From: an uncultured Mycoplasmatota bacterium
GTDB taxonomy: Bacteria; Bacillota_I; Bacilli_A; RF39; UBA660
Assembly (NCBI GenBank): GCA_948467605.1
Contig: CAOKET010000004.1
Location: forward strand, 7,799-71,798
Reading direction: 5' to 3'
DNA: 64,000 bases
The number at the start of each line of letters is the position of its first letter. Within the stretch, counting starts at the first letter, position 1. Shown here piece by piece: positions 11,830 through 64,000 of the stretch. The translations under genes and the position numbers were made by a program. Below the pieces are notes generated by a model. That model saw only the letters and a list, made by a program, of their open reading frames with translations, did not search any database and was not told where the DNA came from.

Positions 11830-11879
11830 AATTAACACTATTACCTCAATTACATAAAATGTGTTGAGGAGTGATTTTA

Positions 11880-18686: not shown

Positions 18687-18738
18687 TTAGTTGTAAACAC
18701 TTGACTTGTGTTTTTATTTTGGAAAAGAAGGTTGAGAT

Positions 18739-18912
18739 ATGAAAAAAATCAAAGCATTTATTGCAGGAGTTGGCAAGGAAGCAAAACGCATTAAATGGCC
18801 GACAAAAAAAGAAATGGTAAAATATACTGGTGCCACTTTAGCGCTTGTGATATTATTTGCTGGTTTATTTTCATTATTAGATATACTTTTCTATTTCCTA
18901 GGAATAATATAG
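18739..18912 (+). CDS. secE: Preprotein translocase subunit SecE (57 aa, absent from the ORF track)
   Basis: Manually translated: MKKIKAFIAGVGKEAKRIKWPTKKEMVKYTGATLALVILFAGLFSLLDILFYFLGII; directly upstream of nusG. Confidence 0.93.
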   Translation: MKKIKAFIAGVGKEAKRIKWPTKKEMVKYTGATLALVILFAGLFSLLDILFYFLGII

Positions 18913-18921
18913 GTGACGATT

Positions 18922-31905: not shown

Positions 31906-32151
31906 TTAAATCAGCAAAAATGTTAAAATTATGTTATAAAGTTGCTTCATTGCTAAAAAATGTATAGTATACTTTAGTTGTATTCGAAATGAGAAAATTG
32001 TTTTTTAGGGGTTCGGTATCTGACCACTAGAGGCACCATTATTGATTATTACTAGTAGAAATACTAGTTTTTTAATTACTATTTAATACATATTAAATTA
32101 ATTTAGGACTAATATAGTCAATTTTTTCATATATTTTTATGGGTGAAGGTT

Positions 32152-33228: not shown

Positions 33229-33803
33229 TGAATAAACTATGGGCAGCATTTATTGTTATTGGTATAGTTTTTTGTATGGCAACAGGAAATGCTGTAACAA
33301 TTAATAATGAAATGATAAATGGTGGCAAATCAGCATTAAAAATGGTAATTGAAATGCTACCATTAATGGCAATTTGGTCAGGACTTATGAATATTGCAAG
33401 TAAAAGTGGATTACTAAATAAATTATCAATTATGTTATCTCCAATACTAAATCCGCTATTTCCAGATATAGAAAAAGGACATGAGTCACTGGGATTAATT
33501 ACATCAAATATGGTTGCCAATATATTTGGTTTAGGGAGTGCAGCAACTCCTTTTGGCCTAAAGGCCATGAAATCTTTACAGGAACTTAATCATGATAAAA
33601 AAATAGCGAGTAGAAGTATGATTACATTTCTAGTACTTAATACAAGTGGTCTTACCCTAATACCAACTACTATAATATCCTTAAGAATGATGCATGGTAG
33701 TCAAAATCCAACAGAAATAATTTTAGCGTCTATTCTAGCAACATTTTTCTCTACCTTTTTTGGCCTTCTAATGAATAAATTCTTATCAAGAAAAGAGGCG
33801 TAA
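33225..33803 (+). CDS. spmA: Spore maturation protein A
   Basis: NMVANIFGLGSAATPFGLKAM..LQ, FLVLNTSGLTLIPTTII. Confidence 0.93.
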   Translation: MMNKLWAAFIVIGIVFCMATGNAVTINNEMINGGKSALKMVIEMLPLMAIWSGLMNIASKSGLLNKLSIMLSPILNPLFPDIEKGHESLGLITSNMVANIFGLGSAATPFGLKAMKSLQELNHDKKIASRSMITFLVLNTSGLTLIPTTIISLRMMHGSQNPTEIILASILATFFSTFFGLLMNKFLSRKEA

Positions 33804-33804
33804 T

Positions 33805-34323
33805 ATGAAAGTAACAGATTTCATAATACCATTAATTGCACTCTTTATAATTATTTATGGTGTAAAAAAGAAAGTACAAGTTTATGATGCATTTATAGAA
33901 GGCGCTAAAGAAGGAATACAAACCTGTATAGAAATATTCCCCGTTTTAATAACAATGATATTTGCGATAAATATTTTATTAAAAAGCAATGTTTTAAATG
34001 TAGTTCTTTCATTTTTATCACCATTATTTGAAGCGTTAAATATACCTAAAGATATTATACCATTAATGTTTTTAAGACCAATTTCAGGCTCTTCTTCACT
34101 AGTTTTAGTAAATGATATTTTTACATCTTATGGACCTGATACGTATATTGGAAGACTAGCGTCTGTTTTGCAAGGGTGTACTGATACGACAATATACGTT
34201 TTATCCCTATATTTTGGCAGTGTTGGTATAAAAAAAACAAGATACGCCCTTTTTAATGGTTTATTCGCAGACATAATGGGGATTATTGCAAGTATAGTAT
34301 TTGTCAATTTGCTATTTTATTAA
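33805..34323 (+). CDS. spmB: Spore maturation protein B
   Basis: VYDAFIEGAKEG, RPISGSSS, DTTIYVLSLYFGSVGIKK.RYA. Confidence 0.93.
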   Translation: MKVTDFIIPLIALFIIIYGVKKKVQVYDAFIEGAKEGIQTCIEIFPVLITMIFAINILLKSNVLNVVLSFLSPLFEALNIPKDIIPLMFLRPISGSSSLVLVNDIFTSYGPDTYIGRLASVLQGCTDTTIYVLSLYFGSVGIKKTRYALFNGLFADIMGIIASIVFVNLLFY

Positions 34324-36698: not shown

Positions 36699-37439
36699 AT
36701 GCAGAAGAAGAAAAAAAACTATAAACTAAATATTTTATTATATAGTATATTATTTGGACTTGTATGTTCTATATTTATGATTTTTCATTTCGGCAAAAAA
36801 ACATTTTCTACTTTAATGGTATATGCAGAATCAGAGGCAAATAAAATAGTAAGTACAATAATTAATAAGATAGTATTAGAAGAAGTTGCAAAAAGTATTA
36901 ATTTTGATGAAATTTTTATAATTACTAAAGGTGAAGATGGGAAAATACAAACAGTTGATTTTGATTCACTTGCAGTAAATAATATTTTGAGTTTTATAAC
37001 TAATTCGGTTGAGGATAATCTAAATTATATGGAAGAAGGAAACTTAGAATTTATGGGTTCAATTAACTTAAAATATAAACCAAATATAGATGATATTAAA
37101 AGAGGAATAGTAGCAGTTATACCATTAGGAGTCTCATTTAATAACCAATATCTTTCAAATTTAGGACCAAAAATACCTGTAAAATTAAGATATGTTGGTT
37201 CAGTATCAACTAATTTAGTAACAGTTGTAAAAGATTATGGTATAAATAATGCTTTAATTGAATTAAATGTTCATATTAAGGTAGTTGAGCAAGTAAACAT
37301 ACCTTTTAATTCAAAAGAAATAGTAGTTGAAAATGATATTCCAATAGCAATAAAAATCATTCAAGGAACTGTACCAGACTATTATGGAAACATACTTTCT
37401 AAATCAAGTCCAATTTTATCAACAAATATAGATAATTAA
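36699..37439 (+). CDS. yunB: Sporulation protein YunB
   Basis: IPLGVSFNN..LSNLGPKIPVK...YGINNA...VPDYY. Confidence 0.9.
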   Translation: MQKKKKNYKLNILLYSILFGLVCSIFMIFHFGKKTFSTLMVYAESEANKIVSTIINKIVLEEVAKSINFDEIFIITKGEDGKIQTVDFDSLAVNNILSFITNSVEDNLNYMEEGNLEFMGSINLKYKPNIDDIKRGIVAVIPLGVSFNNQYLSNLGPKIPVKLRYVGSVSTNLVTVVKDYGINNALIELNVHIKVVEQVNIPFNSKEIVVENDIPIAIKIIQGTVPDYYGNILSKSSPILSTNIDN

Positions 37440-48131: not shown

Positions 48132-48220
48132 TGGTGCCTAAGGCCGGACTTGAACCGGCACGAACTATGACATTCGCAGGATTTTAAGTCCTGTGCGTCT
48201 ACCAATTCCGCCACTCAGGC
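48132..48220 (-). tRNA. tRNA-Leu(UAA)
   Basis: Reverse complement gives CAGGA-CT-TAA-AA-TCCTG, long variable arm, TTCAAGT T-loop, CCA; hairpin CTCGAACTTT/AAAGTTCGAG downstream. Confidence 0.96.
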
Positions 48221-48293
48221 AATACTAATCAATATTGATTAGACTTCTTAAGTATATATCATTTTTTTTGTTTTGACAATACTTTTTAGAAAA

Positions 48294-49259
48294 TTAATAT
48301 GAAAAAAATTGTATTTTTCTATTATCATCTAAATGTTTGCCAGTTAAATATGATTTATTTAATAAATTAAAGATATTGTCTATATCTATTTCATTATTTA
48401 ATACTTGGTTAACTAAATTTATTAGATCAATCGCGTGTTTATAAGCAATACAATATAGTTCTATATAAGAATAATTTAATATTTCCTCTTTATCAACAGG
48501 GTGGAACCATTCATCTTTGTCTAAATTTAGATAGTGTAAATAATTAGTATAATCAAATTTATATGAGGTGATTTTAAGAACATCAAATTTTCCAAATGTA
48601 ATCTTATCTAACATATTATATATAAATTTTTTGACGCCAAATCTATCATATCTAAATAATCTATATACTATTCTCATAGTTTTTATAGATTTATTCATAA
48701 TCTCACCAATTTTTTTAATTCCATATGTATCATAACTACAACATTCAATTAAACCCTTTAATTCATTACTCATTTTAATTTTTGGTATTCCAAAATCATG
48801 AACCTTAAACTTATGAACTTTCATATTATTCCTAATTGAAATCATGTATTCATCTATAGTAAGTTCCATAATAGAGTGTTTACCACGATATTGTTTTCTA
48901 TCATTTCGTCCTCTTATATATCTACCAGTTTTATAGTATACGAGAGGATGAATAGCTGAATCTAATACATAGTGTGTTATATTGCCATATAAATATGCCA
49001 AAATTTGAGAATTATCTTGTAGATCATTATTTTTAATATATGTAATTACATTCTTAAAAAATAATCCAGTTTTTTCTCTATGCATTGTATGACCAAAACG
49101 ACTATATTCTTTTTTACCAATGTATGAGAATAATGGATCAGGACCATTGCTAAATACCTTGTATATATTAATATCATTTACTATTTTAGTTTTTATACTA
49201 CCATCTAATTTTTCTAACACATCTTCTGCAAAATAATTATGTGTAATTGTACTTGGCAT
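48294..49259 (-). CDS. Zinc-dependent phospholipase C / S1-P1 fold protein
   Basis: MPSTITHNYF N-terminus, GPDPLF, MH, THYVLDSAIHP.VYY, HSIMEL.ID metal ligands. Confidence 0.75.
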   Translation of the reverse strand: MPSTITHNYFAEDVLEKLDGSIKTKIVNDINIYKVFSNGPDPLFSYIGKKEYSRFGHTMHREKTGLFFKNVITYIKNNDLQDNSQILAYLYGNITHYVLDSAIHPLVYYKTGRYIRGRNDRKQYRGKHSIMELTIDEYMISIRNNMKVHKFKVHDFGIPKIKMSNELKGLIECCSYDTYGIKKIGEIMNKSIKTMRIVYRLFRYDRFGVKKFIYNMLDKITFGKFDVLKITSYKFDYTNYLHYLNLDKDEWFHPVDKEEILNYSYIELYCIAYKHAIDLINLVNQVLNNEIDIDNIFNLLNKSYLTGKHLDDNRKIQFFSY

Positions 49260-49346
49260 ATTATTCCTCTTTTCATGTATAATTATATCAAAAAAACATG
49301 TATTTTTCTAACTTTATATGTTATACTTTAAAATAGGTGAGAGTGT

Positions 49347-50276
49347 ATGGGCACTAAGCAATTTATGAATTTAAATGAGCAACTTGAAATACTAAAATCA
49401 AGAGGACTTATTATAAATGATGAAGAAAAAGCAAAGGTTATTTTAATTAGAGAAAACTACTTTTTTTTAAGTGGATATAGACATGTATTTTTAAAATCGC
49501 CAAAGGATAGAGTTTATGTACCAGGTACTACTTTTGATGAACTTTATGCCTTATTTACCTTTGATAGGAATTTTAGAAATATTATATTTAAGTATTTACT
49601 TATTATAGAAAATAATATTAAATCTATTTTAAGTTATCAATTATCTAAAAAATATGGTTATAAGGAAAAAGATTATTTAAGGGTTAGTAATTTTACACAA
49701 GATTCTAAAAAAACAAGACAAGTTAATGATTTAATAAAAAAAATGAAAAGACAAATCAGGGTAAATGGTAGACAACACACTGCAACATACCACTATATAA
49801 GTAATTATGGATATATTCCATTATGGATATTAGTTAAAGTATTATCATTTGGATTAATAGGGGAACTTTATTCTATACTTAAAGTAGAAGATCAATTATC
49901 AATCGCAGAAATATACCATTTAGATGTCGAGATACTATCTACCTATTTAAGTATATTAGCAAACTATAGAAATTTATGCGCACACGAAGACATTTTATTT
50001 GAAAGAAGAGTTGAAAAAAATATATTTGATACAAAATATCATAGAATGTTAAATATACCAATAATGGATGATGAATACATATATGGAAAAAACGATTTAT
50101 ATGCGGTCATTATTATGTTAAAACAATTGTTATCAGAAGATGAATTTAGACTTATAATAAACGAAATAAGTTATGAGGTAGATTTACTAAATGGAAGAAT
50201 AAAATGTATACCATTTGAAAAAATATTAGATAGAATGGGATTTCCAAATAACTGGAGAGATATCATTGAATTATAA
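49347..50276 (+). CDS. Abi_2 (AbiD/AbiF-like) HEPN protein
   Basis: EQLEILKSRGLII, YFFLSGYR, LYALFTFDR, IENNIK, IPLWILV..LSFG, HEPN motif RNLCAH. Confidence 0.88.
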   Translation: MGTKQFMNLNEQLEILKSRGLIINDEEKAKVILIRENYFFLSGYRHVFLKSPKDRVYVPGTTFDELYALFTFDRNFRNIIFKYLLIIENNIKSILSYQLSKKYGYKEKDYLRVSNFTQDSKKTRQVNDLIKKMKRQIRVNGRQHTATYHYISNYGYIPLWILVKVLSFGLIGELYSILKVEDQLSIAEIYHLDVEILSTYLSILANYRNLCAHEDILFERRVEKNIFDTKYHRMLNIPIMDDEYIYGKNDLYAVIIMLKQLLSEDEFRLIINEISYEVDLLNGRIKCIPFEKILDRMGFPNNWRDIIEL

Positions 50277-50327
50277 AATAGTGCTTAAATGTGAAGTTGT
50301 AATATAAAAGTAGACACTAAAAAAGTA

Positions 50328-51271
50328 TTATTGAAACCCTAGTTGAGTTCTATATTCGATTGGGGTTTTATATTTCAAAGCATAACTTAGTCGATAATTA
50401 TTATGATCATCAATTATTGCATTTATATATTCTTCAACAGTTTCATAATCATTTTGATTAAAATCAATATACATTTCTTTTTTTAACCATCCATTTTTAG
50501 ATTCAATTATTGGATTATCTGTTGGAGCTCTTATTCTAGACATAGACCTTTTTATGTTATAATCTTTATGTGCATTGTTAAATGCCACTGAGGAATATAT
50601 TGTGCCTTGATCTGAGTGGAAAATTGTTTCTTGGCTTTTATATCCTCTCTTTATTTTGCTATTTAACATATCTTCTAAAGCAGATTTATGATTAGATATA
50701 CTAACGCCATAATAAAATGGCTTAACATCTGAACATATTATAGAATCGTCAAAAGCATCTACATAATAAGTCCAATCATATCTTTGCTTTTTAAACCAAA
50801 TCATAGTTGTATCTGATGTGATTTTTTCAAATGGTCTTGTAGTTTTCCAATCATTATTTATAAGATTAGGGTATTTAATAGATTCTTCTCCTGGTTTTTT
50901 ATAAGTAGAGTAATGTATTGCCTTGCTTCTTATTTTTAATATTTTCATACTTTGTGTACTAGATTATTTGATACTATCCAACCCGTTTCTCTACGAATAA
51001 TAGCATTTATTCTATGATAACCATATCTTGGTTTTCTTTTATGAATATCTCTAATTAATTCTTCTAAATCTCTACGATTGATTTCATATCTATTTAAAAC
51101 ATCTTTTGTTTTTAACCATTTATAATATCCACTTCTTGATATATTCATCACTACACATAAAGATTTAACAGAAAATTCTTTGCTCAATATTTCTACAATT
51201 TCAAATTCATTTTGTTTTATTTCTTGAACATTACAACTAAACCATCTCCTTTCATTAGATATCCTTTTTTT
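50328..51271 (-). pseudogene. IS3 OrfB DDE transposase broken by a 1-nt frameshift
   Basis: The -1 frame from A7G (51265-51271) reads KKRISNERRW...KEFSVKSLC...GYHRI; frame break at HKV*/MKILK near 50946; DDE region DTT, FHSDQG, DNPIIES..GWLKKE. Confidence 0.85.
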
Positions 51272-51573
51272 AATCGTTCATTCTCAATTCTTAATTTCAT
51301 ATTTTTATACTGCAATCTTTCTATGTCCATAAGACTTTTTTTGTTAGAAAATTTAGTTAAAGGATTCCCTGGCTTCTTTTTAGATGTTAATCCATCCATT
51401 CCATTTTCCCTATATTTTTTAATCCAATTTATAATCATTCCATTATTTAATCCTGTTTCTCTAGTTATATCCCACGTACTTTTCTCAAATTCTAATGCTG
51501 GTTTAATTATTCTATATTTTTCTTCTGCTGTCCAGTGCTTAAATTTTTGTCCTTTACTTGCCATTTTTATCAT
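51217..51573 (-). CDS. IS3 OrfA (HTH)
   Basis: WTAEEKYRII...GMIINWIKKYRENG.DGL...KKPGNP; ends just past the slippery site. Confidence 0.88.
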   Translation of the reverse strand: MIKMASKGQKFKHWTAEEKYRIIKPALEFEKSTWDITRETGLNNGMIINWIKKYRENGMDGLTSKKKPGNPLTKFSNKKSLMDIERLQYKNMKLRIENERLKKGYLMKGDGLVVMFKK

Positions 51574-51688
51574 CTCCTTTATTTTATTATAACAAAAAAT
51601 GCAGACACTTTTTTTATGTCTACATTTATCTTACAACTTCACATATTTTTATATATCTACTTTTATATTACAAATTCAATTAAATGCG

Positions 51689-52315: not shown

Positions 52316-53791
52316 CTATTTATCATTATCAATTTTTATATTATAATTACTTGGACCCTCAAGTATATTGCCATCTATATCAAATCTAGAACCATGGCAT
52401 GGGCAATCCCAAGTTTTATCAAAGTTATTAAATATTAAATTACACTTCATATGTGGGCATAAATTTTTTACAATATGTTTCTTATTATCAGAATCTATAT
52501 AAACACCACACAACTCATCGTTTATATATTTTACATATACATTTGACTTATAAAATGAATGGTTTTTTACAAGTTTTGTACCTAAATATATTTTAGTAAT
52601 ATTAACACTATCAATTATAAAATTAGTTATTTTTGTAATACTAATCCCTCTACTTGGAGAAAATAATTTCTCATATTTATTTTTCTTATTTAAAACTATA
52701 TCAGAAAGTAACATTCCAGATATAGTGCCATTAGTCATACCCCATTTATTAAAGCCAGTTGCCATAAGTAAATCCTTGCTATCAGAATTAACTTTACCTA
52801 TTAATGGTAAAATATCATTAGTAGTAATATCATGTGTCATCCAAATATAATCAATGTCACTTTGAAATTTATTTTTAGTATCATTTATAAGCTCATTATA
52901 TCTATTCTCATAGTCAATATGATTACTCATCTTATGAGAACAAGACGAATATAAAACATATTCATTTTTATAACTACGTATAGAAAATATTGGTTTTTTA
53001 ATATTAATACCACTAGTATTTTTATAAACATTATTCTTAAACGCTGATATATAAGAACGTTCTATATGAGTTTTAAAAGGTACTAATCCAGGAGTTATAA
53101 AGAATGGATAGTGAGTAGTTACAATAACTTTTTTTGCCTTTATAGTATTTTTACTTGTTTTTACTATATATCCCTTATCCCCCTTTACTATATCAATAGC
53201 AAGTGTATTTTCCAAAAATTTAACATTAGTACATATATTCATTAATCCTCTAACATATTTAACAGGATTAAATATAGCAGTATTAGGTACTTCAATACAT
53301 CTTTTTACATTAAATGGAAAATTTATATTATCACATACCTTATATTTTTCTCCTACTTTTGATAAAAAAGTCATAGTTTTATTAAAAATACTAAGTTCAC
53401 TTTCATTAGTTACATATAAATATGAAGGAACTGTTTCCAAATCGCAATCAATATTGTACTCCTTAACAGTATTCCTAACAAAATCAATAGCCATTTTAGT
53501 CGCTTCATAATACTTTTTAGCCATTTTAAAACCATGTGCTTTTTCTATCTTATATAACATATCACTTTGTAAAAATGTAAGTTTACCAGTTGAACAAGAC
53601 GTAACTCCTAATCCAATATAACTTTTATCAATTAAGCATACACTTTTTTTAGAATTATTTAAATTAAAGGCAGTAGAAACACCCGCAATTCCACCACCAA
53701 TAATTAATATATCAACTTCCATATCGCTATATTTTTTGTTCTTTTGTTTATCTAGTTTTAAATCTTTTAACCATATTGGTTTATTTATCAT
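52316..53791 (-). CDS. FAD-dependent oxidoreductase with a C-terminal Rieske domain (YhfW-like)
   Basis: GGGIAG, STGKLT, TGFNKWGMT, CPHMKC...WDCPCHGSRF. A CATACTA -10-like box lies upstream (53807-53813). Confidence 0.9.
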   Translation of the reverse strand: MINKPIWLKDLKLDKQKNKKYSDMEVDILIIGGGIAGVSTAFNLNNSKKSVCLIDKSYIGLGVTSCSTGKLTFLQSDMLYKIEKAHGFKMAKKYYEATKMAIDFVRNTVKEYNIDCDLETVPSYLYVTNESELSIFNKTMTFLSKVGEKYKVCDNINFPFNVKRCIEVPNTAIFNPVKYVRGLMNICTNVKFLENTLAIDIVKGDKGYIVKTSKNTIKAKKVIVTTHYPFFITPGLVPFKTHIERSYISAFKNNVYKNTSGINIKKPIFSIRSYKNEYVLYSSCSHKMSNHIDYENRYNELINDTKNKFQSDIDYIWMTHDITTNDILPLIGKVNSDSKDLLMATGFNKWGMTNGTISGMLLSDIVLNKKNKYEKLFSPSRGISITKITNFIIDSVNITKIYLGTKLVKNHSFYKSNVYVKYINDELCGVYIDSDNKKHIVKNLCPHMKCNLIFNNFDKTWDCPCHGSRFDIDGNILEGPSNYNIKIDNDK

Positions 53792-53860
53792 AATCTTCAC
53801 CAATATTAGTATGGATAAAAATAAAAGTAAAAAACATTAAATTTTATAAAATTTAAAAAC

Positions 53861-54769
53861 TTACGATTCTACAATCTCACCACCATTAGGATGTAAAACT
53901 TGCCCTGACATATATCTAGAATCATCACTTGCTAAAAATAAGTAACTATATGCAATCTCAAATGGTTGTCCTGCTCTATTCATAGGAACCTTACTAGTAT
54001 ATGTTCCAAAAGTTTTAACATCTTCCTTAGAGTAAGAAGCAGGTATTAATGGAGTCCAAACAGGTCCAGGAGCAACACCATTTACCCTTATTCCTTTATC
54101 GACTAATGATGAAGAAAGTGATCTAGTTAGAGATACAATCGCACCCTTAGTAGAACTATAATCAATTAAATCCTTATTTCCTTTATATGCAGTAATACTT
54201 GTAGTATTAATTATAGAACTACCTGGTTTTAAATATGGTACAACTGATCTTGTCATATAAAAATATGAAAATACATTTGTTCTAAAAGTGTCTTCTAATT
54301 GTTTATCAGTAATATCAGTGATACTTTTCTTTATATATTGAACAGCGCAGTTATTAACAAGTATATCTATTTTACCAAAATTATTTATTGCCTCATCAAC
54401 AACTAATTTACAATTAGAAGAATCCCTTAAATCACCTGGAATTAAAATACATTTTCTACCCATTCTATCGATATTATTTTTAGTTTGATTCGCATCTCTA
54501 TGCTCATTTAAATAACTGATTACAATATCAGCGCCTTCCATAGCAAAAAGATAAGCGATACTTCTTCCAATACCGCTATCTCCACCTGTTATTATTGCAA
54601 CCTTACCCTTTAATTTTCCACTGGGCACATAATATGGGTTAAATGATATTGGCTGTGGATTCATCACATATTCAAAGCCTGGTTGAATATTTTGATGTTG
54701 TGGTGGAAAAGCGATATCAACATTATTGCATATCTTTTCCTTACCTATATAATCATATTCTGGATACAT
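53861..54769 (-). CDS. SDR oxidoreductase (YhdF/YdaD-like)
   Basis: FPPQHQ..QPG.E..M.P.P, TGGDSGIG, YSSTK, NGVAPGPVWTP. Confidence 0.92.
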   Translation of the reverse strand: MYPEYDYIGKEKICNNVDIAFPPQHQNIQPGFEYVMNPQPISFNPYYVPSGKLKGKVAIITGGDSGIGRSIAYLFAMEGADIVISYLNEHRDANQTKNNIDRMGRKCILIPGDLRDSSNCKLVVDEAINNFGKIDILVNNCAVQYIKKSITDITDKQLEDTFRTNVFSYFYMTRSVVPYLKPGSSIINTTSITAYKGNKDLIDYSSTKGAIVSLTRSLSSSLVDKGIRVNGVAPGPVWTPLIPASYSKEDVKTFGTYTSKVPMNRAGQPFEIAYSYLFLASDDSRYMSGQVLHPNGGEIVES

Positions 54770-54863
54770 AAAATTTTCCTCCTATTAAAATTTATTAATT
54801 ATTAATATTTTTATTATTGCTTTTTAAATATCAAAGCATAAAATACTTCGAAGGAGGATATTT

Positions 54864-55157
54864 ATGGATTATAAAATTATAATTGATCCTGGACACGGAG
54901 GTAATGACCCAGGTGCTAGTGGAAATGGAATAATAGAAAAAGATTTGACTTTAAAGATATCAAATTATATGTATAACAGATTTAAGGAACTAGGTATACC
55001 TGTATTTATTACTAGATCAACAGATGAGACTTTATCACCTACTGAAAGAGTTAATAGAATAAAAGAATATGCTGGTAATGATAAAAATGTAGTAGTAGTA
55101 TCTAATCACATAAATGCAGGAGGTTCGATTGGAAAAATTGTGATGGCTAGAATATAG
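54864..55157 (+). pseudogene. 5' fragment of an N-acetylmuramoyl-L-alanine amidase (Amidase_3), interrupted near 55124
   Basis: IIIDPGHGGNDPGA, EKDLTL.IS, TRSTD..L...ER, SNHINAGG, then unrelated sequence and a stop; the C-terminal catalytic Glu segment is missing. Confidence 0.85.
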
Positions 55158-55307
55158 TGTATAACTTCATAAGCTCCTTGAATTATGGAACTTAAATTTA
55201 CTCTTGTTCCACAATTTGTTAGTTTGTTGGTACAAGAGTAATCAAAATATGAGTCTATTTTAATTAATAGGCTTTTTTAAGTGTGTAGAAAAAGGAGAAA
55301 ACAAAAT

Positions 55308-55727
55308 ATGATAGTAAGAGTTAAAAAAGATAAAGATTATACAGTAATGAGCAATTATCATTTTAAAGATAAGAATTTAAGTTTAAGGGCAAAAGGTTTG
55401 TTATCTCTAATGTTATCACTTCCTAATAATTGGGATTATTCAATTAATGGTTTATGTAGCATATGTAATGAATCGAGAACTACTATAAGAAATACTTTAA
55501 AAGAATTGAGAGATAATCATTATTTAGAAATGAATGAAAATCGTGATAAAAAAGGAAAATTTACTTATGATTATATAGTTTATGAAATTCCTAATATCAA
55601 TCCATAGGGTGATTTTCGCCTTGTGGATTTTCCGTATACGGGTTTTTATATACAATTAAGTATTTAAATAATAAAGTATTAAAAAACAAATAGATAAAAT
55701 AGATAAAACCAAAATTAAATTTTGGTA
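55308..55727 (+). pseudogene. Decayed HTH replication-initiator-like gene of phage/IME type
   Basis: MIVRVKKDKDYTVMSNYHFKDKNLSLRAKGLLSLMLSLP..WDYS..GL; TAG at 55605-55607, then coding-like GDFRLVDFPYTG and a shifted KQIDKIDKT tail. Confidence 0.7.
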
Positions 55728-55848
55728 AGTAAATTAATTGTAAATAGTCGATTTTTGTCGACAAATATAGTATAATTAAGATACTTAGTTATTCTTGAAT
55801 AATTAAAAGGTAAGTATTTATGAAGTTTGATTGGGGAGAGTAAAATTT

Positions 55849-56667
55849 ATGAATGAGAAAACTTATGATGAAGTATTAGATGAAAAAAATCCTAGAATAA
55901 AACAATTATATTGGAATATAGCTTTTGGCTTACAAGAAGTTGATAAGTTGAAACCATCAAAATATATGATTGAACTTGCTAATGAGCATATTAAAGGTGC
56001 TAAGACTTATAAAGAAGTTCAATATGAAATCAATTCTTATCATGAAAATAGTAATTCGAATGATGAAAAAGAAGCCGATGAAGTGGCAACGGCTATCTAT
56101 GAGATATTAAATGATGGTGCTTTTAGATTTGATTATTTGACTTATAAAAATTATCACAAAAGATTATTTCAAAATTTAGATAAAAAGGTTTATAAAGCCG
56201 GAGAATTTAGAACTCATAATTTTACCAAAGATGAAGAGATACTGGATAATGACACAGTTACTTATCAATCTTATGACTTAATTGAAAAAACTTTAAAATA
56301 TGATTTTGAAGAAGAAAAACAAATAGATTATTCTAAATTTACTAATGAAGAACTAATAAATAGAATCTCTGAATTTACATCGAGAATATGGCAAGTTCAT
56401 CCTTTTAATGAGGGAAACACAAGAACTACAGCTGTATTTATTCAAAAATATTTAATAAATATAGGTTTTGATGTTAATAATGATTTATTTAAGGATAATT
56501 CGTTATACTTTAGAAATGCTTTAGTAAGGGCTAATTATACTAATTATGCTAAAGGAGTAAAGGAAACCAAAAAATATTTAATTATGTTTTTTGAGAATTT
56601 GTTATTTAATAAAAATAATAAGTTAGAAAATAATGAATTATATATAATTGAAAAAGAGGATAATTAG
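55849..56667 (+). CDS. Fic family protein with an N-terminal VbhA-like segment
   Basis: Fic motif HPFNEGNTRT; N-terminal AFGLQEVDKLKPS helix. Confidence 0.88.
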   Translation: MNEKTYDEVLDEKNPRIKQLYWNIAFGLQEVDKLKPSKYMIELANEHIKGAKTYKEVQYEINSYHENSNSNDEKEADEVATAIYEILNDGAFRFDYLTYKNYHKRLFQNLDKKVYKAGEFRTHNFTKDEEILDNDTVTYQSYDLIEKTLKYDFEEEKQIDYSKFTNEELINRISEFTSRIWQVHPFNEGNTRTTAVFIQKYLINIGFDVNNDLFKDNSLYFRNALVRANYTNYAKGVKETKKYLIMFFENLLFNKNNKLENNELYIIEKEDN

Positions 56668-56685
56668 GATTTGGAGGTAGTACAA

Positions 56686-58251
56686 GTGAATAGGAAAGAG
56701 CACGAAAAAGAAGAACTTCATAAGACAATTTGGAAAATAGCTAATGAACTTAGAGGATCAGTAGATGGCTGGGATTTTAAACAATATGTTTTAGGTTTAT
56801 TATTTTATAGATTTATATCTGAAAACATTGAAAATTATGTTAATGATAATCAAAGAAAAGCAGGCATTGCAGATTTTGAATATAGAAATATCTCAGATGA
56901 AGAAGCTTTATTAGGTAAAACTCAGATATTAGAAGAAAAAGGTTTTTTTATATTGCCTAGTGAATTATTTTGCAATATAAGAAAAAGTGCAGATAAAAAT
57001 GAGAACTTAAATGTTGTTATATCTAATGTATTTAATAATATTGAAGCATCTGCTAGAGGTACTGCTTCAGAAAATGATGTTAAAGGTTTATTTGATGATT
57101 TTACAATAGATAATAAATTAGGTAATACTGTAGATGAAAGAAATGAAAAACTAGTTAGATTACTTAATGCTATAGGTGAATTAAGCTTTGGTGAATATAC
57201 AGACAATAATATTGATTTATTTGGTGATGCGTATGAATTTTTGATGACAATGTATGCATCTTCAGCTGGTAAATCTGGTGGTGAATTTTTTACACCTCAA
57301 GAAGTTGGAGAGTTACTTGCTAGGATTGTTATAATGGATAAGACTTCTGTTAATAAGGTTTATGATCCAGCTTGTGGATCAGGTGGATTATTACTTAAAT
57401 TTGCCAAGATACTAGGTAAAGAAAATGTAAGAGAAGGTTTCTTTGGGCAGGAGATTAATCTAACTACTTATAACCTAGCTAGAATTAATATGTTTTTACA
57501 CAATATTAATTATAATAATTTTAATATTGAACGAGGAGATACTTTAATACATCCTGTACATTGGGATGATGAGCCATTTGATGCAATTGTTTCTAATCCA
57601 CCATATTCTATTAAATGGGCAGGCAAAGAAAATCCTATACTTATTAATGATGAGAGATTTGCTCCTGCTGGAGTATTAGCTCCTTCATCAAAAGCAGATT
57701 TAGCATTTACTATGCACATGTTATCTTGGTTATCTTCAAAAGGAACTGCTGCAATAGTTGAGTTTCCTGGAGTTCTATATAGAGGTGGTGCAGAACAAAA
57801 AATCAGGCAATACATGATTGATAATAATTTTGTTGACACTGTTATTCAACTACCATCTGATTTATTTTTTGGAACTTCTATAGCAACTTGTATTTTAGTA
57901 TTAAAGAAGAATAAGACCGATAATAACATACTATTTGTGGATGCTAGTGATGAGTGTGTAAGAAATACTAATAAGAATAAATTATCTGATGATAATATTA
58001 ATAATATTGTTAATCTATTAAAAAATAGAGTAGCTGCTGATGGTAAAGCATATCTAGCTACTTATGAGGAAGTTAGGGATAATGATTATAATATCTCTGT
58101 TAACTCATATTTAAAAACTGACACCGGTGGCGAAACAATAGATATTGTAGAAGTAAATAGAAAATTGGCTGAGATAGTCCCAAGACAACAACAATTACGT
58201 GTTGAGTTAGAAAAGCTAATCAAAGAATTAGAGGTTGATTATCATGAATAA
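56686..58251 (+). CDS. hsdM: Type I R-M methyltransferase
   Basis: GGEFFTPQEV, YDPACGSGGLL, GQEIN, VSNPPYS (m6A motif IV), FPGVLYRG. Confidence 0.97.
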   Translation: MNRKEHEKEELHKTIWKIANELRGSVDGWDFKQYVLGLLFYRFISENIENYVNDNQRKAGIADFEYRNISDEEALLGKTQILEEKGFFILPSELFCNIRKSADKNENLNVVISNVFNNIEASARGTASENDVKGLFDDFTIDNKLGNTVDERNEKLVRLLNAIGELSFGEYTDNNIDLFGDAYEFLMTMYASSAGKSGGEFFTPQEVGELLARIVIMDKTSVNKVYDPACGSGGLLLKFAKILGKENVREGFFGQEINLTTYNLARINMFLHNINYNNFNIERGDTLIHPVHWDDEPFDAIVSNPPYSIKWAGKENPILINDERFAPAGVLAPSSKADLAFTMHMLSWLSSKGTAAIVEFPGVLYRGGAEQKIRQYMIDNNFVDTVIQLPSDLFFGTSIATCILVLKKNKTDNNILFVDASDECVRNTNKNKLSDDNINNIVNLLKNRVAADGKAYLATYEEVRDNDYNISVNSYLKTDTGGETIDIVEVNRKLAEIVPRQQQLRVELEKLIKELEVDYHE

Positions 58252-58681
58252 ATCAAATATGGATAAACTTGTAGTTGAACTGTTAAATAAAGTAAAAATT
58301 GATGATAGTAAATTATTAGAAAATGATGTTCATGAAATAACATTTGTATTCCGATTTGCACATTATCTCGCTAATATTATAGAAAATACAACAAGTTATA
58401 AAGTCGATATTGAATATAATAGAGATAAGAGTAATGTAAAACGAATTGATAACAAAATAAGAAGAGTCGATTTAATTGTTCACCAAAGAGCAACTAATGA
58501 TAATTTAATTGCTATTGAATTTAAAAAAGGATACGAATCTGAAACAGATAAGAGTGAATTAGAAAAACTTAAAATTGATTATTGCTATAAAAATATATAT
58601 TTCATAGATTTTAAATTAGGCAAAATCGAAACATATAATAATAATGAGTGGGTATATATACAAGGTGGCTACCATGAGTAG
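58244..58681 (+). CDS. Small PD-(D/E)xK-like nuclease inserted between hsdM and hsdS
   Basis: HE..F.FRFAHYL...VDIEYNR...RVDLIVHQR...NLIAIEFKK fits a D...ExK nuclease core. Confidence 0.6.
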   Translation: MNKSNMDKLVVELLNKVKIDDSKLLENDVHEITFVFRFAHYLANIIENTTSYKVDIEYNRDKSNVKRIDNKIRRVDLIVHQRATNDNLIAIEFKKGYESETDKSELEKLKIDYCYKNIYFIDFKLGKIETYNNNEWVYIQGGYHE

Positions 58682-59840
58682 GATTAATGATTTGATTAAA
58701 AAATTGTGTCCTAATGGAGTAAGCTATATTAAATTAGGTGAATTATTAGATTATGTTCAACCAACTAAGTATATTGTTAAAACTACAAATTATTGCCAAG
58801 AATATAAAACTCCTGTTTTGACTGCTGGACAGACATTTATTTTAGGATACACTAATGAAGAAGATGGAATTTATAAAGCAAGTAAAGATAATCCCGTAAT
58901 TATATTTGATGATTTTATGGCAACCAGTCATTTAGTAGATTTTAATTTTAAAGTTAAGTCATCAGCAATAAAAATATTAGTACCCAAAACAAACAATGTA
59001 TTTAAATATATTTATTATTGCATCGATAATATTAACTATATTCCTAAAGAGCATTCTAGACAATGGATTCAGAATTACAGCCAATTTAAAATACCTTTAC
59101 CACCAATTGAAGTGCAAGAAGAAATAGTACGGATTCTTGATAAATTTGGCGAGCTAGAAGCGGAGCTAGAAGCGGAGCTAGAAGCGAGAAAGAGTCAATA
59201 TGAATTTTGGTGTGGAAAATTGTTTGATTTTGAAGATAATGTTGAAAAGTTATCTTTAGAAAAACTATGTAATATTGTTGATTATAGAGGAAAAACACCA
59301 AAAAAGGTTGATTCAGGAATATTTTTAGTAACTGCAAAGAATATTAAAATGGGTTATATAGATTATGAATATTCAAAAGAGTATATAGCTGAAAAGGATT
59401 TAGAGGATGTTATGAGAAGAGGTAAAGCGAATGTTGGCGATGTTTTATTTACAACTGAAGCACCTTGTGGACATGTAGCGCAAGTAGATAAGAATAATAT
59501 TGCTTTGGCACAACGTGTAATCAAGTATTCCTCAAAAGATTTATTACAATTAAGTAATGAATACTTAAAATATGCTTTATTATCTCATCAATTTCAAAAC
59601 AAATTATCAGAAACTTCAACTGGATCTACTGTAAAAGGAATAAAGGGTTCAAAATTGCATAAAATGACTATCCCCGTTCCGTCTATTGAGAAACAAAATA
59701 AAATAGTTAGAATATTAGATAAATTTGATTCATTAGTTAATGATATTAATGTGGGTATTCCTGCTGAAATTGAATTAAGAAGACAACAATATGAATATTA
59801 TAGAAACAAATTATTGTCTTTTAACGAATTAAAGGAGTGA
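58674..59840 (+). CDS. hsdS: Type I R-M specificity subunit
   Basis: Two TRDs; conserved regions IPLPPIEVQEEIVRILDKF...ARKSQYE and IPVPSIEKQ..IV.ILDKF...RRQQYEYYRNKLLSF. Confidence 0.95.
   Translation: MSRINDLIKKLCPNGVSYIKLGELLDYVQPTKYIVKTTNYCQEYKTPVLTAGQTFILGYTNEEDGIYKASKDNPVIIFDDFMATSHLVDFNFKVKSSAIKILVPKTNNVFKYIYYCIDNINYIPKEHSRQWIQNYSQFKIPLPPIEVQEEIVRILDKFGELEAELEAELEARKSQYEFWCGKLFDFEDNVEKLSLEKLCNIVDYRGKTPKKVDSGIFLVTAKNIKMGYIDYEYSKEYIAEKDLEDVMRRGKANVGDVLFTTEAPCGHVAQVDKNNIALAQRVIKYSSKDLLQLSNEYLKYALLSHQFQNKLSETSTGSTVKGIKGSKLHKMTIPVPSIEKQNKIVRILDKFDSLVNDINVGIPAEIELRRQQYEYYRNKLLSFNELKE
59151..59186 (+). repeat. 12-bp tandem repeat x3 (GAGCTAGAAGCG) in the hsdS central region
   Basis: Three exact copies encoding ELEA ELEA ELEA. 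Confidence 0.95.
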
Positions 59841-60346
59841 ATATGAGAAAATTTAATCAAATTACTAAAAGATTATTTCAAATTTTTCTCTATTTATTAG
59901 AAACACTTGGTTTTGCATTAGTTTTAACATTAATAACTAATAAATTTTTATCTCCTACTAACTGGTTTGATATTCTTGAAAGAGTAACTATATATTATAC
60001 TTTATATCAAATTGTTATTTATAATATTTTACAGCAGTTAAATGATATTAAAAAAGATGAATATTTGGCTCTATTATCAATGTATAAATATGTTGAAATT
60101 TATAATTCAGATAAGAAGGAAGATATAAGAAAAGACATATATTGTCTAATTGAAAGTCAATTAAATAATGATATGCTAAATGATGTAAATATTAAAAATG
60201 AATATAATGAAATAAAAAAAGTTTTAGATAATAAAGGAAAGTTTGATGAAACAAAGATTAAAGTAAAAATTTTAAAATATGAACATTGTTATGAAGAAGT
60301 AGTGTTAAATTGGAAGTATTCGATTTTACTTAGAATATTTAAATAG
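59837..60346 (+). CDS. Hypothetical protein with two N-terminal TM helices, between hsdS and hsdR
   Basis: LFQIFLYLLETLGFALVLTLIT and VTIYYTLYQIVIY, then a soluble helical domain; GTG at 59837 overlaps the hsdS TGA (alternative ATG at 59843). Confidence 0.7.
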   Translation: MNMRKFNQITKRLFQIFLYLLETLGFALVLTLITNKFLSPTNWFDILERVTIYYTLYQIVIYNILQQLNDIKKDEYLALLSMYKYVEIYNSDKKEDIRKDIYCLIESQLNNDMLNDVNIKNEYNEIKKVLDNKGKFDETKIKVKILKYEHCYEEVVLNWKYSILLRIFK

Positions 60347-60358
60347 GAAGTGAAGAAA

Positions 60359-63300
60359 ATGAGTAATATAGGTTTAATAAGTGAGAATGATAACTCTACT
60401 GTATTAGCAGAATATACAGGTTTAAATAGAGTGGCTACATCTTTTCAAAGTGAGGATGCTCTTGAAAAAGAGCTTATTAAAACATTAGTAGATCAAGGAT
60501 ATGATTATTTAACTATTAATTCTGAAGATGAATTAATTTTAAATTTAAGAAGACAATTAGAAAAATTAAATAATTATGCCTTTACTGATGGTGAATGGGA
60601 TTCATTCTTTGCTAAGGTTATTGCTAATAAAAATGATTACATTATAGAAAAGACTAGACTTATTCAAGAGGATTATAAGCAAGAGATTACGCTTGATTCT
60701 GGTGCTAAGAAAAATATTTATCTAATAGATAAGAATAATATCCATAACAATAGCGTTCAAGTATTAAATCAATATGTTAATAATGAAGGAAATTACGATA
60801 ATAGATATGATGTCACTATTTTAGTTAATGGTCTTCCTTTAGTTCATGTAGAACTTAAAAAACGAGGAGTAGATTTAAGAGAAGCATTCAACCAAATAGA
60901 AAGATATCAAAGAGATTCATTTTGGGCAGGATGTGGGTTATATAATTTTGTTCAAATATTTGTTATATCTAATGGGACACTTACTAAGTATTATTCTAAT
61001 ACCACTAGAGAGTTTCATATCAATAATCAGAAAAAAAAGAAATCTAATTCATTTGAATTTACTTCCTATTGGGCAGACCAAAAAAATAATGGGATAACTG
61101 ATTTAATTGATTTTGCTAAAACTTTTTTAACTAAGCATACTTTACTTAATGTCTTAACTAAATATTGTGTATTTACTAGTGAAGAAGATCTACTGGTTAT
61201 GAGACCTTATCAGATAGTTGCAACCGAGAAGATATTAAATAGAATAACTATTGCTTATAACAGCAAGTTCTATGGGTCTATTAAGTCTGGTGGTTATATA
61301 TGGCATACAACTGGTTCAGGTAAGACACTTACTTCTTTTAAAACATCACAACTTGCTAGTAAATTAGGTTTTATTGATAAGGTTTTGTTTGTTGTAGATA
61401 GAAAAGATTTAGATTATCAAACAATGAAAGAATATGATAGGTTTAAGGAAGGTGCAGCTAACTCTAATACCTCTACTAAGGTGTTGGAGGAACAATTGCA
61501 TGATCCTAATGCTAAAATCATTATTACAACTATTCAAAAACTTTCTCAGTTTATTAAGAAGAATGAGAATAGTGAAGTTTTTAATAAGCATGTAGTATTT
61601 ATTTTTGATGAATGTCATAGGTCACAATTTGGCGATATGCATAAAGCTATTATAAAAAAATTTAACAAATATTATTTATTTGGTTTTACAGGTACACCAA
61701 TATTTCCAGAGAATGCTAGAACTATTAAATGTGTAGCTGAAACTACTGAGCAAATCTTTGGAGAGAGATTACATACTTATACAATTGTTAATGCAATTGC
61801 TGATAAGAATGTTTTACCTTTCAAATATGAATATGTTGGTAGAGTTGATATTAGAGATGATGTTAATGATGAAAAAGTTTACAATATAGATGAAGAAAAA
61901 TTATTTGATAATCAGATGAGAATAAGTATGATTACCTTATATATAATTGATCATTTTAGTACCAAGACAAAGACTAGTGAAAGCTATGTATATTCAACTC
62001 TTGATAATGTAATAGAAGTTGCCAAAAAGCAAGATACAGAGGAAATTAAGACTAAGAAAAATGTTAATGGTTTTAATTCAATATTTGCTGTTTCTAGTAT
62101 CAAAATGGCAAAGGAATACTATGCTGAATTTAAAAAAGAATTATCTTTTAGTAATAGCAATCTTAAAGTAGCATTAATTTATTCTTATGGCGTTAATGGT
62201 GAAGATGGAGTTATTGATGAAAATTCTGAGTCTACGGAGGCACTTAGTACTGATGATAGAACATTCTTAGAAGGTGCTATTAAAGATTATAATAAGATGT
62301 TTGGTACAAGTTATGATACATCATCAGAACGTTTTCAAAATTATTATAAAGATGTCTCGTTAAGAATGAAAAATAGAGAGATAGATATTTTAATCGTTGC
62401 TAATATGTTTTTAACTGGATTTGATGCTAAGACATTAAATACATTATGGGTGGATAAAAACCTTAAGTGGCATGGCTTGATACAAGCTTTTTCTAGAACT
62501 AATAGAATACTTAATAGTGTAAAAACATATGGTAATATTGTTTCGTTTAGAAATTTAGAGGATAGACTTAATGAGGCACTTGCTAAATTTGGCGATGAAG
62601 AGGCACATGGTGTAGTTTTACTAAAACCATATAAAGATTATTATTATGGTTATCAATATGATAATGGTAAAACATTTGAAGGTTATAAGTCACTAGTTGA
62701 AAAATTAACTTCTAAATTTGCACCTGGTGAGTTAATGCAAAGTGAAGCAGATCAGAAAGAGTTTATCAAACTATATGGTGCTATTCTTAAAGTGACTAAT
62801 ATTTTGTCATCATTTGATGAGTTCAAAGATGACGAACTAATTAATGAAAGAGATAAGCAAGACTACCATAGTGTTTATATTGAACTATATAATGACTTTA
62901 GAAATAGAACAAAACAGGAAAAAACAGATGTTACTGATGATGTAGTATTTGAAATGGAACTTATCAAATCTATAGAAGTTAACATTGATTATATCTTGGG
63001 ATTAGTTAAGAAGTATCATGACTCTAACATGGAGGATAAAGAGATACTTATTACTATAGAGAAAACTATCATGGCAAGCCCTGATTTAAGAAATAAGAAG
63101 GATTTAATTATGGCATTTATTGATTCACTTGATCAGGATTCAAATGTATATGGGGATTTTGAATCATTCATGAATAGTAAAAGACGTGAAGAACTAGATA
63201 GGATAATAAGCGAAGAAAACCTAAATAAAGATGAAACATATAGTTTTATTCAAAGGGCTTTCGAACAAGGTAGAGTGGAAACTAATGGTACAGAAGTATC

Positions 63301-63427
63301 AACTATACTTCCACCTATGAGTATGTTTACTCCTACTAATGATAGACAAGAAAAGAAAAATAAGGTTATTGATAGATTACTTGAATTTTTCGACAAATTT
63401 TTTAGTATATCTAATGACAAATTTTAA
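60359..63427 (+). CDS. hsdR: Type I R-M restriction subunit (EcoR124I-like)
   Basis: RYDVTILVNGLPLVHVELKK nuclease, HTTGSGKT, DECHR, FGFTGTP, FLTGFD, QAFSRTNR. Confidence 0.97.
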   Translation: MSNIGLISENDNSTVLAEYTGLNRVATSFQSEDALEKELIKTLVDQGYDYLTINSEDELILNLRRQLEKLNNYAFTDGEWDSFFAKVIANKNDYIIEKTRLIQEDYKQEITLDSGAKKNIYLIDKNNIHNNSVQVLNQYVNNEGNYDNRYDVTILVNGLPLVHVELKKRGVDLREAFNQIERYQRDSFWAGCGLYNFVQIFVISNGTLTKYYSNTTREFHINNQKKKKSNSFEFTSYWADQKNNGITDLIDFAKTFLTKHTLLNVLTKYCVFTSEEDLLVMRPYQIVATEKILNRITIAYNSKFYGSIKSGGYIWHTTGSGKTLTSFKTSQLASKLGFIDKVLFVVDRKDLDYQTMKEYDRFKEGAANSNTSTKVLEEQLHDPNAKIIITTIQKLSQFIKKNENSEVFNKHVVFIFDECHRSQFGDMHKAIIKKFNKYYLFGFTGTPIFPENARTIKCVAETTEQIFGERLHTYTIVNAIADKNVLPFKYEYVGRVDIRDDVNDEKVYNIDEEKLFDNQMRISMITLYIIDHFSTKTKTSESYVYSTLDNVIEVAKKQDTEEIKTKKNVNGFNSIFAVSSIKMAKEYYAEFKKELSFSNSNLKVALIYSYGVNGEDGVIDENSESTEALSTDDRTFLEGAIKDYNKMFGTSYDTSSERFQNYYKDVSLRMKNREIDILIVANMFLTGFDAKTLNTLWVDKNLKWHGLIQAFSRTNRILNSVKTYGNIVSFRNLEDRLNEALAKFGDEEAHGVVLLKPYKDYYYGYQYDNGKTFEGYKSLVEKLTSKFAPGELMQSEADQKEFIKLYGAILKVTNILSSFDEFKDDELINERDKQDYHSVYIELYNDFRNRTKQEKTDVTDDVVFEMELIKSIEVNIDYILGLVKKYHDSNMEDKEILITIEKTIMASPDLRNKKDLIMAFIDSLDQDSNVYGDFESFMNSKRREELDRIISEENLNKDETYSFIQRAFEQGRVETNGTEVSTILPPMSMFTPTNDRQEKKNKVIDRLLEFFDKFFSISNDKF

Positions 63428-63515
63428 AACTTAGTGTAGCAAAAAATATAGCCAATTTATTTTCAAATTGGCTATATAAAACAATATTCATCACTTTTTA
63501 ATAATCATATCTAGT

Positions 63516-63728
63516 TTATCCTAGATTATTATTCTTACTGTTGTCTGGATTCGATGCTATAAATTTTTTCCCTGTTTCTGATTGAGTTCTAACATGATAC
63601 TTTGGATACAAACCATTTTCTACTTTTTTTACGGCTTGGTTAATAGTCATATCGATTCCTAAGTAATTATCGTGTATCTTGGTATTAAATCCTGATGAGG
63701 TTTCGTTTTTTACAGATAATCTTTTCAT
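63516..63728 (-). CDS. Small DUF3892-like protein
   Basis: AGGAG RBS; ends FIASNPDNSKNNNLG, resembling the NPD....NNL tail of DUF3892. Confidence 0.55.
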   Translation of the reverse strand: MKRLSVKNETSSGFNTKIHDNYLGIDMTINQAVKKVENGLYPKYHVRTQSETGKKFIASNPDNSKNNNLG

Positions 63729-64000
63729 ATATTTGTAATCTCCTTTCTAGAAGTTACAAACAGTATAAGGAAAGAGCATAACCAAAAAACTACATAAATA
63801 TTGATTTTCATAGAATTTTTGGGTATACTATTTATATCGTATAGTGGCATATATGATATTTGGAATGTTATACTTGTTTATAACTTTCTGATTTATTGCT
63901 AGAAAATCACAAATGTGGTTTTTTATTTGCCTCAATATTTTCTAGCTAAATAAATTTTATCATGTTATTTTAATAATTGCAATATTTATTTTTAATTTTT

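Follow-up and report, generated by a model that had tools for sequence, protein, structure and literature searches.

In a 64,000-nucleotide stretch of DNA from an uncultured Mycoplasmatota bacterium (the window; contig CAOKET010000004.1, positions 7,799 to 71,798), we found that a chromosomal gene for an Amidase_3 enzyme is interrupted between codons 87 and 88 by a 14,606-bp island that carries its own large serine recombinase (LSR), and that joining the two flanks of this island restores an intact open reading frame (ORF) of 458 amino acids (aa). A serine recombinase made this site-specific insertion, whose position we can resolve to 5 bp. We put at about 85% the probability of the structural account as a whole, in which a non-phage LSR island, one of a family that uses this target, splits a chromosomal amidase gene whose ORF could be rebuilt by excision. 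The promoter and the company of the amidase gene suggest that it functions late in sporulation, and excision may be timed to that stage, as in the gin and skin elements of other spore formers, a proposal to which we give somewhat less than an even chance. All coordinates below are in window numbering; those above 64000 are window-equivalent positions read on L085, a contig of an ENA metagenome assembly.

The ORF at 54864-55157 encodes 97 aa and matches the Pfam Amidase_3 profile over positions 1-78 of 174 only (E 5.8e-20). Over residues 1-87 it is 64-79% identical to its orthologues, which it tracks as far as ...VVVSNHINAGG, the last base of codon 87 being 55124. Past this codon the window ORF reads SIGKIVMARI where intact orthologues read GGDGAEVIYALRN; these 10 unrelated codons lie within the island, and the ORF ends there at a TAG (55155-55157). 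The 5' piece (codons 1-87, 54864-55124, plus strand) retains its promoter as well as two His and one Glu metal ligands. Its ribosome-binding site, read directly as AGGAGG at 54852-54857, is 6 nt from the ATG at 54864 and is separated by another 6 nt from the end of the promoter box at 54845.

The rest of the gene is not within the window, where the matches to its 3' half are a CwlD-like gene (4601-5272) and a LysM protein (11871-12326). We reached the far end of the island by looking up the exact sequence of one of its proteins, a DUF3892 protein, in public assemblies. This led to L085, which is 100% identical to window positions 53516-64000 and runs 8.8 kb beyond them, to 72780. On L085 the 3' half of the amidase gene is found at 69726-70840, in frame and in the same orientation as the 5' half; it starts with G-G-D-G-A-E (...GGDGAEVVYALRNN...) and spans five LysM repeats, to about 70840. 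The five bases GAGGT at the left attachment site (attL, 55120-55124, plus strand) recur identically at the right end of the island (69726-69730), so that the insert of 14,606 bp has a GAGGT core at either end; its left 8.9 kb (55125-64000) are in the window, and the remainder (64001-69730) is on L085. When the flanks are joined at GAGGT, the resulting 458-aa ORF covers Amidase_3 positions 1-173 of 174 and all five LysM repeats. The predicted empty chromosomal site (attB), which joins 55124 to 69731, reads ...GCAGGAGGT followed by GGCGATGG..., and the predicted site on the excised element (attP), which joins 69730 to 55125, reads ...CCCGAGGT followed by TCGATTGG....

A natural empty site is found in the relative L087, in which an oxidoreductase gene, a dehydrogenase gene, a 460-aa amidase gene, and a convergent Hydrolase_2 gene follow one another uninterrupted. 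When the left and right flanks from the window locus are aligned to L087, the two alignments overlap by exactly 5 bp, and these are GAGGT. The recombinase gene (68015-69625 on L085, 536 aa) ends about 100 bp before the right attachment site (attR), directly ahead of the 3' half of the amidase gene. Its product contains PF00239 Resolvase, PF07508 Recombinase, and PF13408 Zn_ribbon_recom domains in this order, as expected for an LSR. Among solved structures, its catalytic domain matches TnpX best (104.6 bits) and also matches the TP901-1 integrase, while its nearest annotated plasmid homologue is TndX, at 39% identity. An earlier interpretation made from the window's letters (the sequence-only reading) had predicted a distant 3' half, a recombinase, and an empty allele in relatives, and it would have abandoned the idea if the 3' half, the recombinase, or a junction from which the gene can be reconstituted were missing; all of these are present.

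In the mechanism that we propose, the LSR, with its TnpX/TndX-like catalytic domain, would have placed this non-phage integrative island at codon 87/88. Recombination at the GAGGT core would split the amidase gene, leaving the rest of the catalytic domain and the five LysM repeats 14.6 kb downstream, and recombination in the opposite direction at this core would restore a perfect 458-aa ORF. Because the gene is split by 14.6 kb, the vegetative chromosome would encode no active amidase.

We also considered whether there is an insertion at all, since the window derives from a metagenome assembly and an assembly chimera, a self-splicing intron, or recoding could in principle mimic a split gene. 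For this and the analyses of allele turnover below, mouse-gut sequencing runs were examined as assembled Logan contigs, on the attL side of the junction only. The attL junction was assembled independently, with no differences, in five runs (X1, X2, X4, X5, and X6). The insert consists of 14.6 kb of protein-coding genes that end in a recombinase, the amidase ORF stops at a TAG after 10 unrelated codons, and a group I intron at 55119-55278 was rejected when no Rfam family matched 54700-55900 at E<=1. We thus regard all three of these explanations as extremely improbable. An inverted repeat just inside the left arm of the element (TACTCTTGTTCCACAA...TTGTTGGTACAAGAGTA, 55199-55240) may be a transcription stop or a feature of the recombinase arm and is not an intron. 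Base composition does not set the element apart, as it is indistinguishable from its flanks, with 23-30% GC throughout.

The same codons are a recurrent target. In a census of 81 amidase copies in 80 loci, with one genome per species, an insertion breaks these codons in 43 copies, 34 copies are intact, and the other 4 run into the end of their contig; the site is therefore occupied in 43 of 77 related species (56%), and a break at the same codons in so many species argues that the truncation in the window is not due to chance. The sequences beyond the break fall into several unrelated classes, whose crossovers lie within about 12 bp (GGAGGTGGnGAnGGT). In 14 of the interrupted loci, a recombinase 47-69% identical to that of the window's element is found within the 10-kb flank, while recombinases elsewhere in the loci are only 23-32% identical to it. 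The element belongs to a family of LSR islands that are related to one another and together fill these codons in over half of the related gut Bacilli species. All 43 interrupted 5' halves are open up to the junction. A 3' half is visible in six loci, where the elements are 5 to 10 kb long, and all six are open as well. The promoter is retained in 35 of 41 interrupted alleles versus 22 of 32 intact ones. The cargo in the other loci includes type I restriction-modification (R-M) systems, Fic, IetAS, an OLD/TOPRIM ATPase, helicases, and a SocA-like antitoxin, and one class of element has TnpV directly after attL.

Two further features of this gene were noted. Insertions also occur at a second site, where the first LysM repeat starts; there, ...YYTV.xGD is followed after the break by.[IV]FMGNN and a stop (L056:10001-10630, L077:10001-10620, and L083:3308-3925); in L083 and L086 a different serine recombinase, of 521 aa, lies beyond this break. 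In addition, some relatives have tandem amidase paralogues (L026, L065, L078, and L028), and in L028 the HINAGG site is interrupted in the second of the two copies, the first being intact.

Within the species, the occupant of the site changes. The window-type junction was present in runs X1 to X6, and matching pieces of the element were present in X8 and X11. In X9, X18, X26, X29, and X30, a different sequence (CATTCGCGTGATGTGATT...) that resembles the L066/L049/L053 class begins after 55128, and in X12 a third sequence (AGGCAATAATCATTGTGTAAC...), of the TnpV class, begins after 55123. Three element types thus sit on flanks that are 99.9-100% identical, in different mouse-gut runs. The X26 sample holds two alleles on the same species' flank, one of the window type (55111-55261) and one of the CATTCGCG... 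type (54995-55128). We found no intact allele of this species in the assembled contigs of about 17 runs. In a collection of 15 billion proteins, the closest intact proteins share 94% identity over residues 1-200, and their clusters have no 458-aa member.

Elements also appear in more than one species. An element 90-95% identical to that of the window is present in another species (L081-L084 and L086) that has a clearly differing amidase. In this copy (for example, L081:3900-4120 and 18700-19000) the recombinase is split into ORFs of 207 and 343 aa, and the copy is flanked by only about 20-nt remnants that resemble att arms. The occurrence of a near-identical element in another species, together with the exchange of types within a species, indicates that the islands move between species and replace each other. 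On one side of the other-species copy is a NERD/UvrD module, and on the other is the promoter of a different amidase gene. That gene is intact in L081; in L084 a Hachiman (HamA) island interrupts it at HINAGG, and in L083 and L086 the interruption is at the second site. The L082 copy has a Mob_Pre relaxase gene and two DNA methylase genes after the recombinase gene.

The split recombinase and the degenerate att remnants of these near-identical elements raise the question of whether the window's element is likewise immobile and its amidase gene a pseudogene. We consider such a dead end improbable in this strain, where the recombinase gene is unbroken (a single 536-aa ORF that encodes all three domains), the att cores at the two ends are perfect, and each half of the amidase gene is open and in frame.

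The sequence-only reading had called the interrupted gene a sporulation gene, and several lines of evidence strengthen that assignment. A sigmaK-type promoter is predicted at 54819-54845 on the plus strand, with a -35 gC at 54819-54820, a 16-nt spacer, and the -10 box CATAAAATA at 54837-54845. We lined up the upstream regions of 78 orthologues by their start codons and sought this box within about 80 nt of the start. CATAnnnTA was found in 62 of the 78 regions, compared to a mean of 4.4 and a maximum of 13 in shuffled sequences, and in 9.3% of 525 upstream regions of other ORFs from the same loci. When the 62 regions are aligned on the box, a C is present in 95% of them 17 nt upstream, and the preceding base is A in 77%. 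The consensus is AC-N16-CATAnAnTA, and the motif AC-N16-CATAnnnTA is conserved over about 60 species. SigmaE and sigmaK promoters share the -10 sequence and differ in one base of the -35 region, which is C for sigmaK (PMC517825). The Amidase_3 domain begins at residue 5 of the rebuilt protein, so the amidase has no signal peptide. In most intact relatives, the gene is followed by a convergent 141-aa Hydrolase_2 gene of the cwlJ/sleB family. The conservation of this pair on chromosomes argues that the amidase is a conserved chromosomal gene and not a prophage lysin, and we rejected the reading as a prophage endolysin on the basis of the pair and of the promoter, both of which are kept across species.

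Other genes in the window suggest a host that forms spores. A YunB equivalog at 36699-37439 scores 162 bits against a curated cutoff of 112, and a CwlD-type amidase at 4601-5272, with 213 bits, falls just below its cutoff of 222; from their translations, the genes downstream of the latter appear to be cdaA-like and YbbR-like. A DacB-like gene and two Gate-domain (SpmA/B-like) genes at 32143-34323 are in a dacB-spmA-spmB arrangement, and a cwlJ-like gene as well as weak GerS and YutH matches are found among the genes in or next to the window. Judged by these marker genes, the host probably forms spores, and the motifs and markers together suggest that the amidase gene acts late in the mother cell, as cwlC does. 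In Bacillus subtilis, cwlC is a terminal, GerE-activated mother-cell lysis gene (PMC517825), and the target of the island looks like a late mother-cell lysin of this type. Because such a gene would matter only in the terminal mother cell, it would offer the island a low-cost parking place.

These features would fit a programmed rearrangement like those of gin and skin, in which the island is kept in the vegetative cell and the forespore and is excised only in the sporulating mother cell. The LSR, probably with a directionality factor, would carry out the excision, and the rebuilt amidase would be transcribed by sigmaK RNA polymerase and help mother-cell lysis. LSR elements located inside mother-cell genes excise during sporulation, as is known for skin, skinCd, SPbeta, vfbin, gin, and yin, alongside which vrin is also cited (PMC4191935, PMC5595907, PMC5025042, PMC10747680), and in the literature that we searched this precedent covers the LSR elements in mother-cell sporulation genes that have been tested. 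For SPbeta and skinCd, sporulation control is confined to the directionality factor (PMC5595907), so a constitutive recombinase would be compatible with programmed excision. The conservation of the sigmaK-type promoter of the target across about 60 species, together with the lack of decay in the interrupted alleles (open 5' halves in 43 of 43, promoters in 35 of 41, and open 3' halves in 6 of 6), argues for this explanation. Occupancy of 56% of species and of all of the about 17 runs also indicates that carriage of the islands costs little. We nevertheless hold it to be somewhat less probable than even odds, in view of the following evidence.

Several observations weigh against excision during sporulation. 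The rejoined amidase gene and the circular junction, which the sequence-only reading had proposed as signs of excision, were not found in assembled contigs: there was no attP circle and no same-species attB among the loose ends of the run contigs, a form of data that drops rare forms. Scans of metagenome contigs for an exact 42-mer of attB and an exact 24-mer of attP were empty, as was a scan of viral contigs for an exact 38-mer of attP; these exact-pattern negatives are weak, because the presence of the organism in those collections was not established. CATAnnnTA is present in none of 15 upstream regions (250 nt) of related recombinase genes, and the region upstream of the window's own recombinase gene has a sigmaA-like extended -10, TGTTATAAT. 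No small gene of the element has a sigmaK-type promoter, and within the 19-kb region only the amidase gene itself has the arrangement of box, ribosome-binding site, and ATG that is typical of the amidase. For the promoter types that we modelled, we found no sporulation control of the recombinase or of a directionality factor, and indeed no candidate directionality factor and no sporulation-type promoter anywhere in the element. A conserved first gene after attL was tried as the directionality factor and rejected, as the first gene differs between element families, which thus have no conserved attL-proximal partner gene. The nearest relatives of the recombinase are TnpX and TndX, which are not known to need a partner protein for excision. 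The split recombinase and att remnants in other genomes mean that some copies are clearly stuck. Finally, mother-cell expression of the amidase is deduced from a promoter motif, and the sporulation ability of the host from a few marker genes within one window.

Many of these findings would also be expected if the amidase gene were a plain integration hotspot, in which a Tn4451-like, possibly mobilizable serine-recombinase island uses highly conserved amidase codons as attB, loss of the amidase is tolerated through other lytic enzymes or paralogues, and excision is sporadic, serving transfer and not development. We consider this explanation to have close to an even chance. It would account for the likeness of the recombinase to TnpX (104.6 bits) and TndX (39% identity), for the sigmaA-like extended -10 of its gene, for the sister element family that carries TnpV directly after attL, and for the Mob_Pre relaxase gene that adjoins the L082 copy. 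Tandem amidase paralogues in L026, L065, and L078, the stuck copies with a split recombinase, the second insertion site in the same gene, and the exchange of elements within and between species are consistent with it as well. However, it leaves unexplained why the promoter and the open halves are kept as well in interrupted as in uninterrupted alleles and why the search yielded no intact allele from this species, and the window's own element has neither a relaxase gene nor TnpV.

Going further, and with still more caution, we propose that in this mouse-gut spore former the sigmaK amidase gene always holds a defence island, and that one such island can be exchanged for another. Each sampled genome would carry one of at least three interchangeable islands, the germ line would keep the cargo, and the mother cell would shed it. 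If this tentative idea is correct, the mobile immune arsenal of the clade docks mainly at one late-sporulation gene. More generally, if excision is developmental, defence islands systematically exploit genes of a terminal cell as cost-free parking sites, and the elements constitute a set of natural recombinase/att pairs with one common target sequence. If it is not, the site is a base-pair-resolved integration hotspot at which the flow of defence genes in the gut can be traced.

The cargo of the window's element begins, in the direction of the amidase gene, with an HTH_36 DNA-binding protein (55281-55607, PF13730, E 7.8e-10; 99 aa from the ATG at 55308, and also called as 99 aa on an identical contig) and a Fic-domain protein (55831-56667, Pfam Fic E 1.3e-10, PADLOC PDC-S72 E 1.9e-81). 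These are followed on the same strand by the genes of a type I R-M system, namely the methyltransferase HsdM (56671-58251, PADLOC MTase_I E 5e-121), the specificity subunit HsdS (58644-59840, PADLOC Specificity_I E 2.8e-102, full length), and the restriction subunit HsdR (60350-63427, PADLOC REase_I 1134 bits, full length). The system is complete, as each of the three matches covers its model. Two ORFs are nested in this operon with overlapping stops and starts: one of 148 aa between hsdM and hsdS that resembles PD-Lambda-3_A (58235-58681, plus strand, PADLOC PDLC03986 E 8e-16), and an orphan of 169 aa between hsdS and hsdR with no Pfam or PADLOC match (59837-60346, plus strand). In the related copies in L081-L084, this middle part of the R-M operon is exchanged for other sequence. 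A 70-aa DUF3892 protein (63516-63728, PF13031 E 5.6e-5) is the only product of an element gene on the opposite strand. Just past the window end, L085 encodes the AAA ATPase IetA (64069-65124, PADLOC E 4.7e-37) and then, in an adjacent and overlapping gene, the S8 protease IetS (65117-67339, PADLOC E 1.7e-62), the order by which an IetAS system is recognized. A 31-aa ORF with a good ribosome-binding site and no family match is located at L085:4823-4918 (67863-67958), which places it in the 675-bp gap that precedes the recombinase gene; it might be a partner of the recombinase. We found no phage genes in the element, and family searches found neither TnpV nor a relaxase (Mob_Pre) in it.

Upstream of the amidase gene, on the minus strand, are genes for a short-chain dehydrogenase (53861-54769) and an FAD/Rieske oxidoreductase (52316-53803). 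The truncation and its setting are thus as the sequence-only reading had described them: the family match is lost directly after HINAGG, a -10-like box (CATAAAAT, 54837-54844) precedes the gene, foreign genes begin less than 200 bp away, from the HTH_36 ORF at 55281/55308 through Fic, hsdM, hsdS, and hsdR, and the neighbours are of the kinds it named. Elsewhere in the window, a separate small island at 48132-51600, next to a tRNA-Leu gene (48132-48220), contains an Abi_2 abortive-infection gene (49347-50276) and, by eye, what appear to be broken ORFs of an IS3-type transposase on the minus strand (50328-50948, 50945-51187, and 51217-51573).

The element has the structure of a sporulation gene-intervening element, in that it lies within a coding region, its excision would restore the ORF, and it has its own LSR gene beside an att site. 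It shares an LSR gene at one end and a split gene, here a putative mother-cell gene, with skin (sigK; SpoIVCA) and SPbeta (spsM; SprA/SprB) of Bacillus subtilis and with skinCd (CD1231/CD1234) of Clostridioides difficile, and the constitutive recombinase of SPbeta and skinCd would fit the sigmaA-like promoter of the window's recombinase gene. In contrast to this element, which has no phage genes and no known partner protein, these three are prophages or their remnants, with experimentally established excision and directionality factors, and their targets are a regulator or a polysaccharide-synthesis gene, whereas the target here encodes a lytic enzyme.

The closest recombinase catalytic domains are those of the clostridial elements Tn4451/Tn4453 (TnpX) and Tn5397 (TndX), at an identity of at most 39%. 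The Tn4451 group also resembles the present family in the TnpV of sister elements, in the Mob_Pre gene beside one copy, and in the GA dinucleotide of the core. Of the features that define Tn4451/Tn4453-type elements (a TnpX-like recombinase, TnpV, and the Mob/Pre relaxase TnpZ), the window's element has the recombinase likeness only. It differs from the group in having no TnpV, relaxase, or resistance gene and in using one specific site within one gene, whereas Tn4451 inserts at many GA-containing sites.

The target itself shares with CwlC, the sigmaK/GerE-dependent lysis amidase of Bacillus subtilis (PMC517825), an Amidase_3 domain, the lack of a signal peptide, C-terminal wall-binding repeats, and, by prediction, a sigmaK-type promoter. 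The wall-binding repeats are SPOR repeats in CwlC and five LysM repeats here, and a CwlC-like function of the target is suggested by these likenesses. Neither an amidase nor cwlC is mentioned as a target of such elements in the literature that we searched, and within that literature the suggestion that the element is undescribed holds.

The nearest precedent, as a non-phage element that carries R-M genes, is gin, which interrupts gerE in Bacillus cereus ATCC 10987 and is excised with GirC and GirX (PMC5595907). Like the island described here, gin is a non-phage island with R-M genes and a serine recombinase that lies within a coding region. The gene that gin splits is a late mother-cell gene of the sigmaK period, as the amidase gene probably is, and precise excision rebuilds the ORF of gerE as it would rebuild that of the amidase. 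The two differ in target (gerE versus a CwlC-like amidase gene), number of recombinases (three versus one), and size (28.6 kb versus 14.6 kb), and the cargo here consists almost entirely of defence genes, with no GirX-like partner identified. Excision is known for gin and is predicted here from sequence, and the host here belongs to uncultured mouse-gut Bacilli, with several families of elements filling the site in about half of the related species. The mother-cell genes known to be split, sigK, spsM, spoVFB, spoVR, gerE, and yabG, are from cultured Bacillus and Clostridium strains. To these, the present locus adds a new target, a putative CwlC-like lysis amidase gene, and a new host group, the uncultured low-GC gut Bacilli, along with a cargo that is almost wholly anti-phage, occupancy of more than half of the related species, and the exchange of elements within one species.

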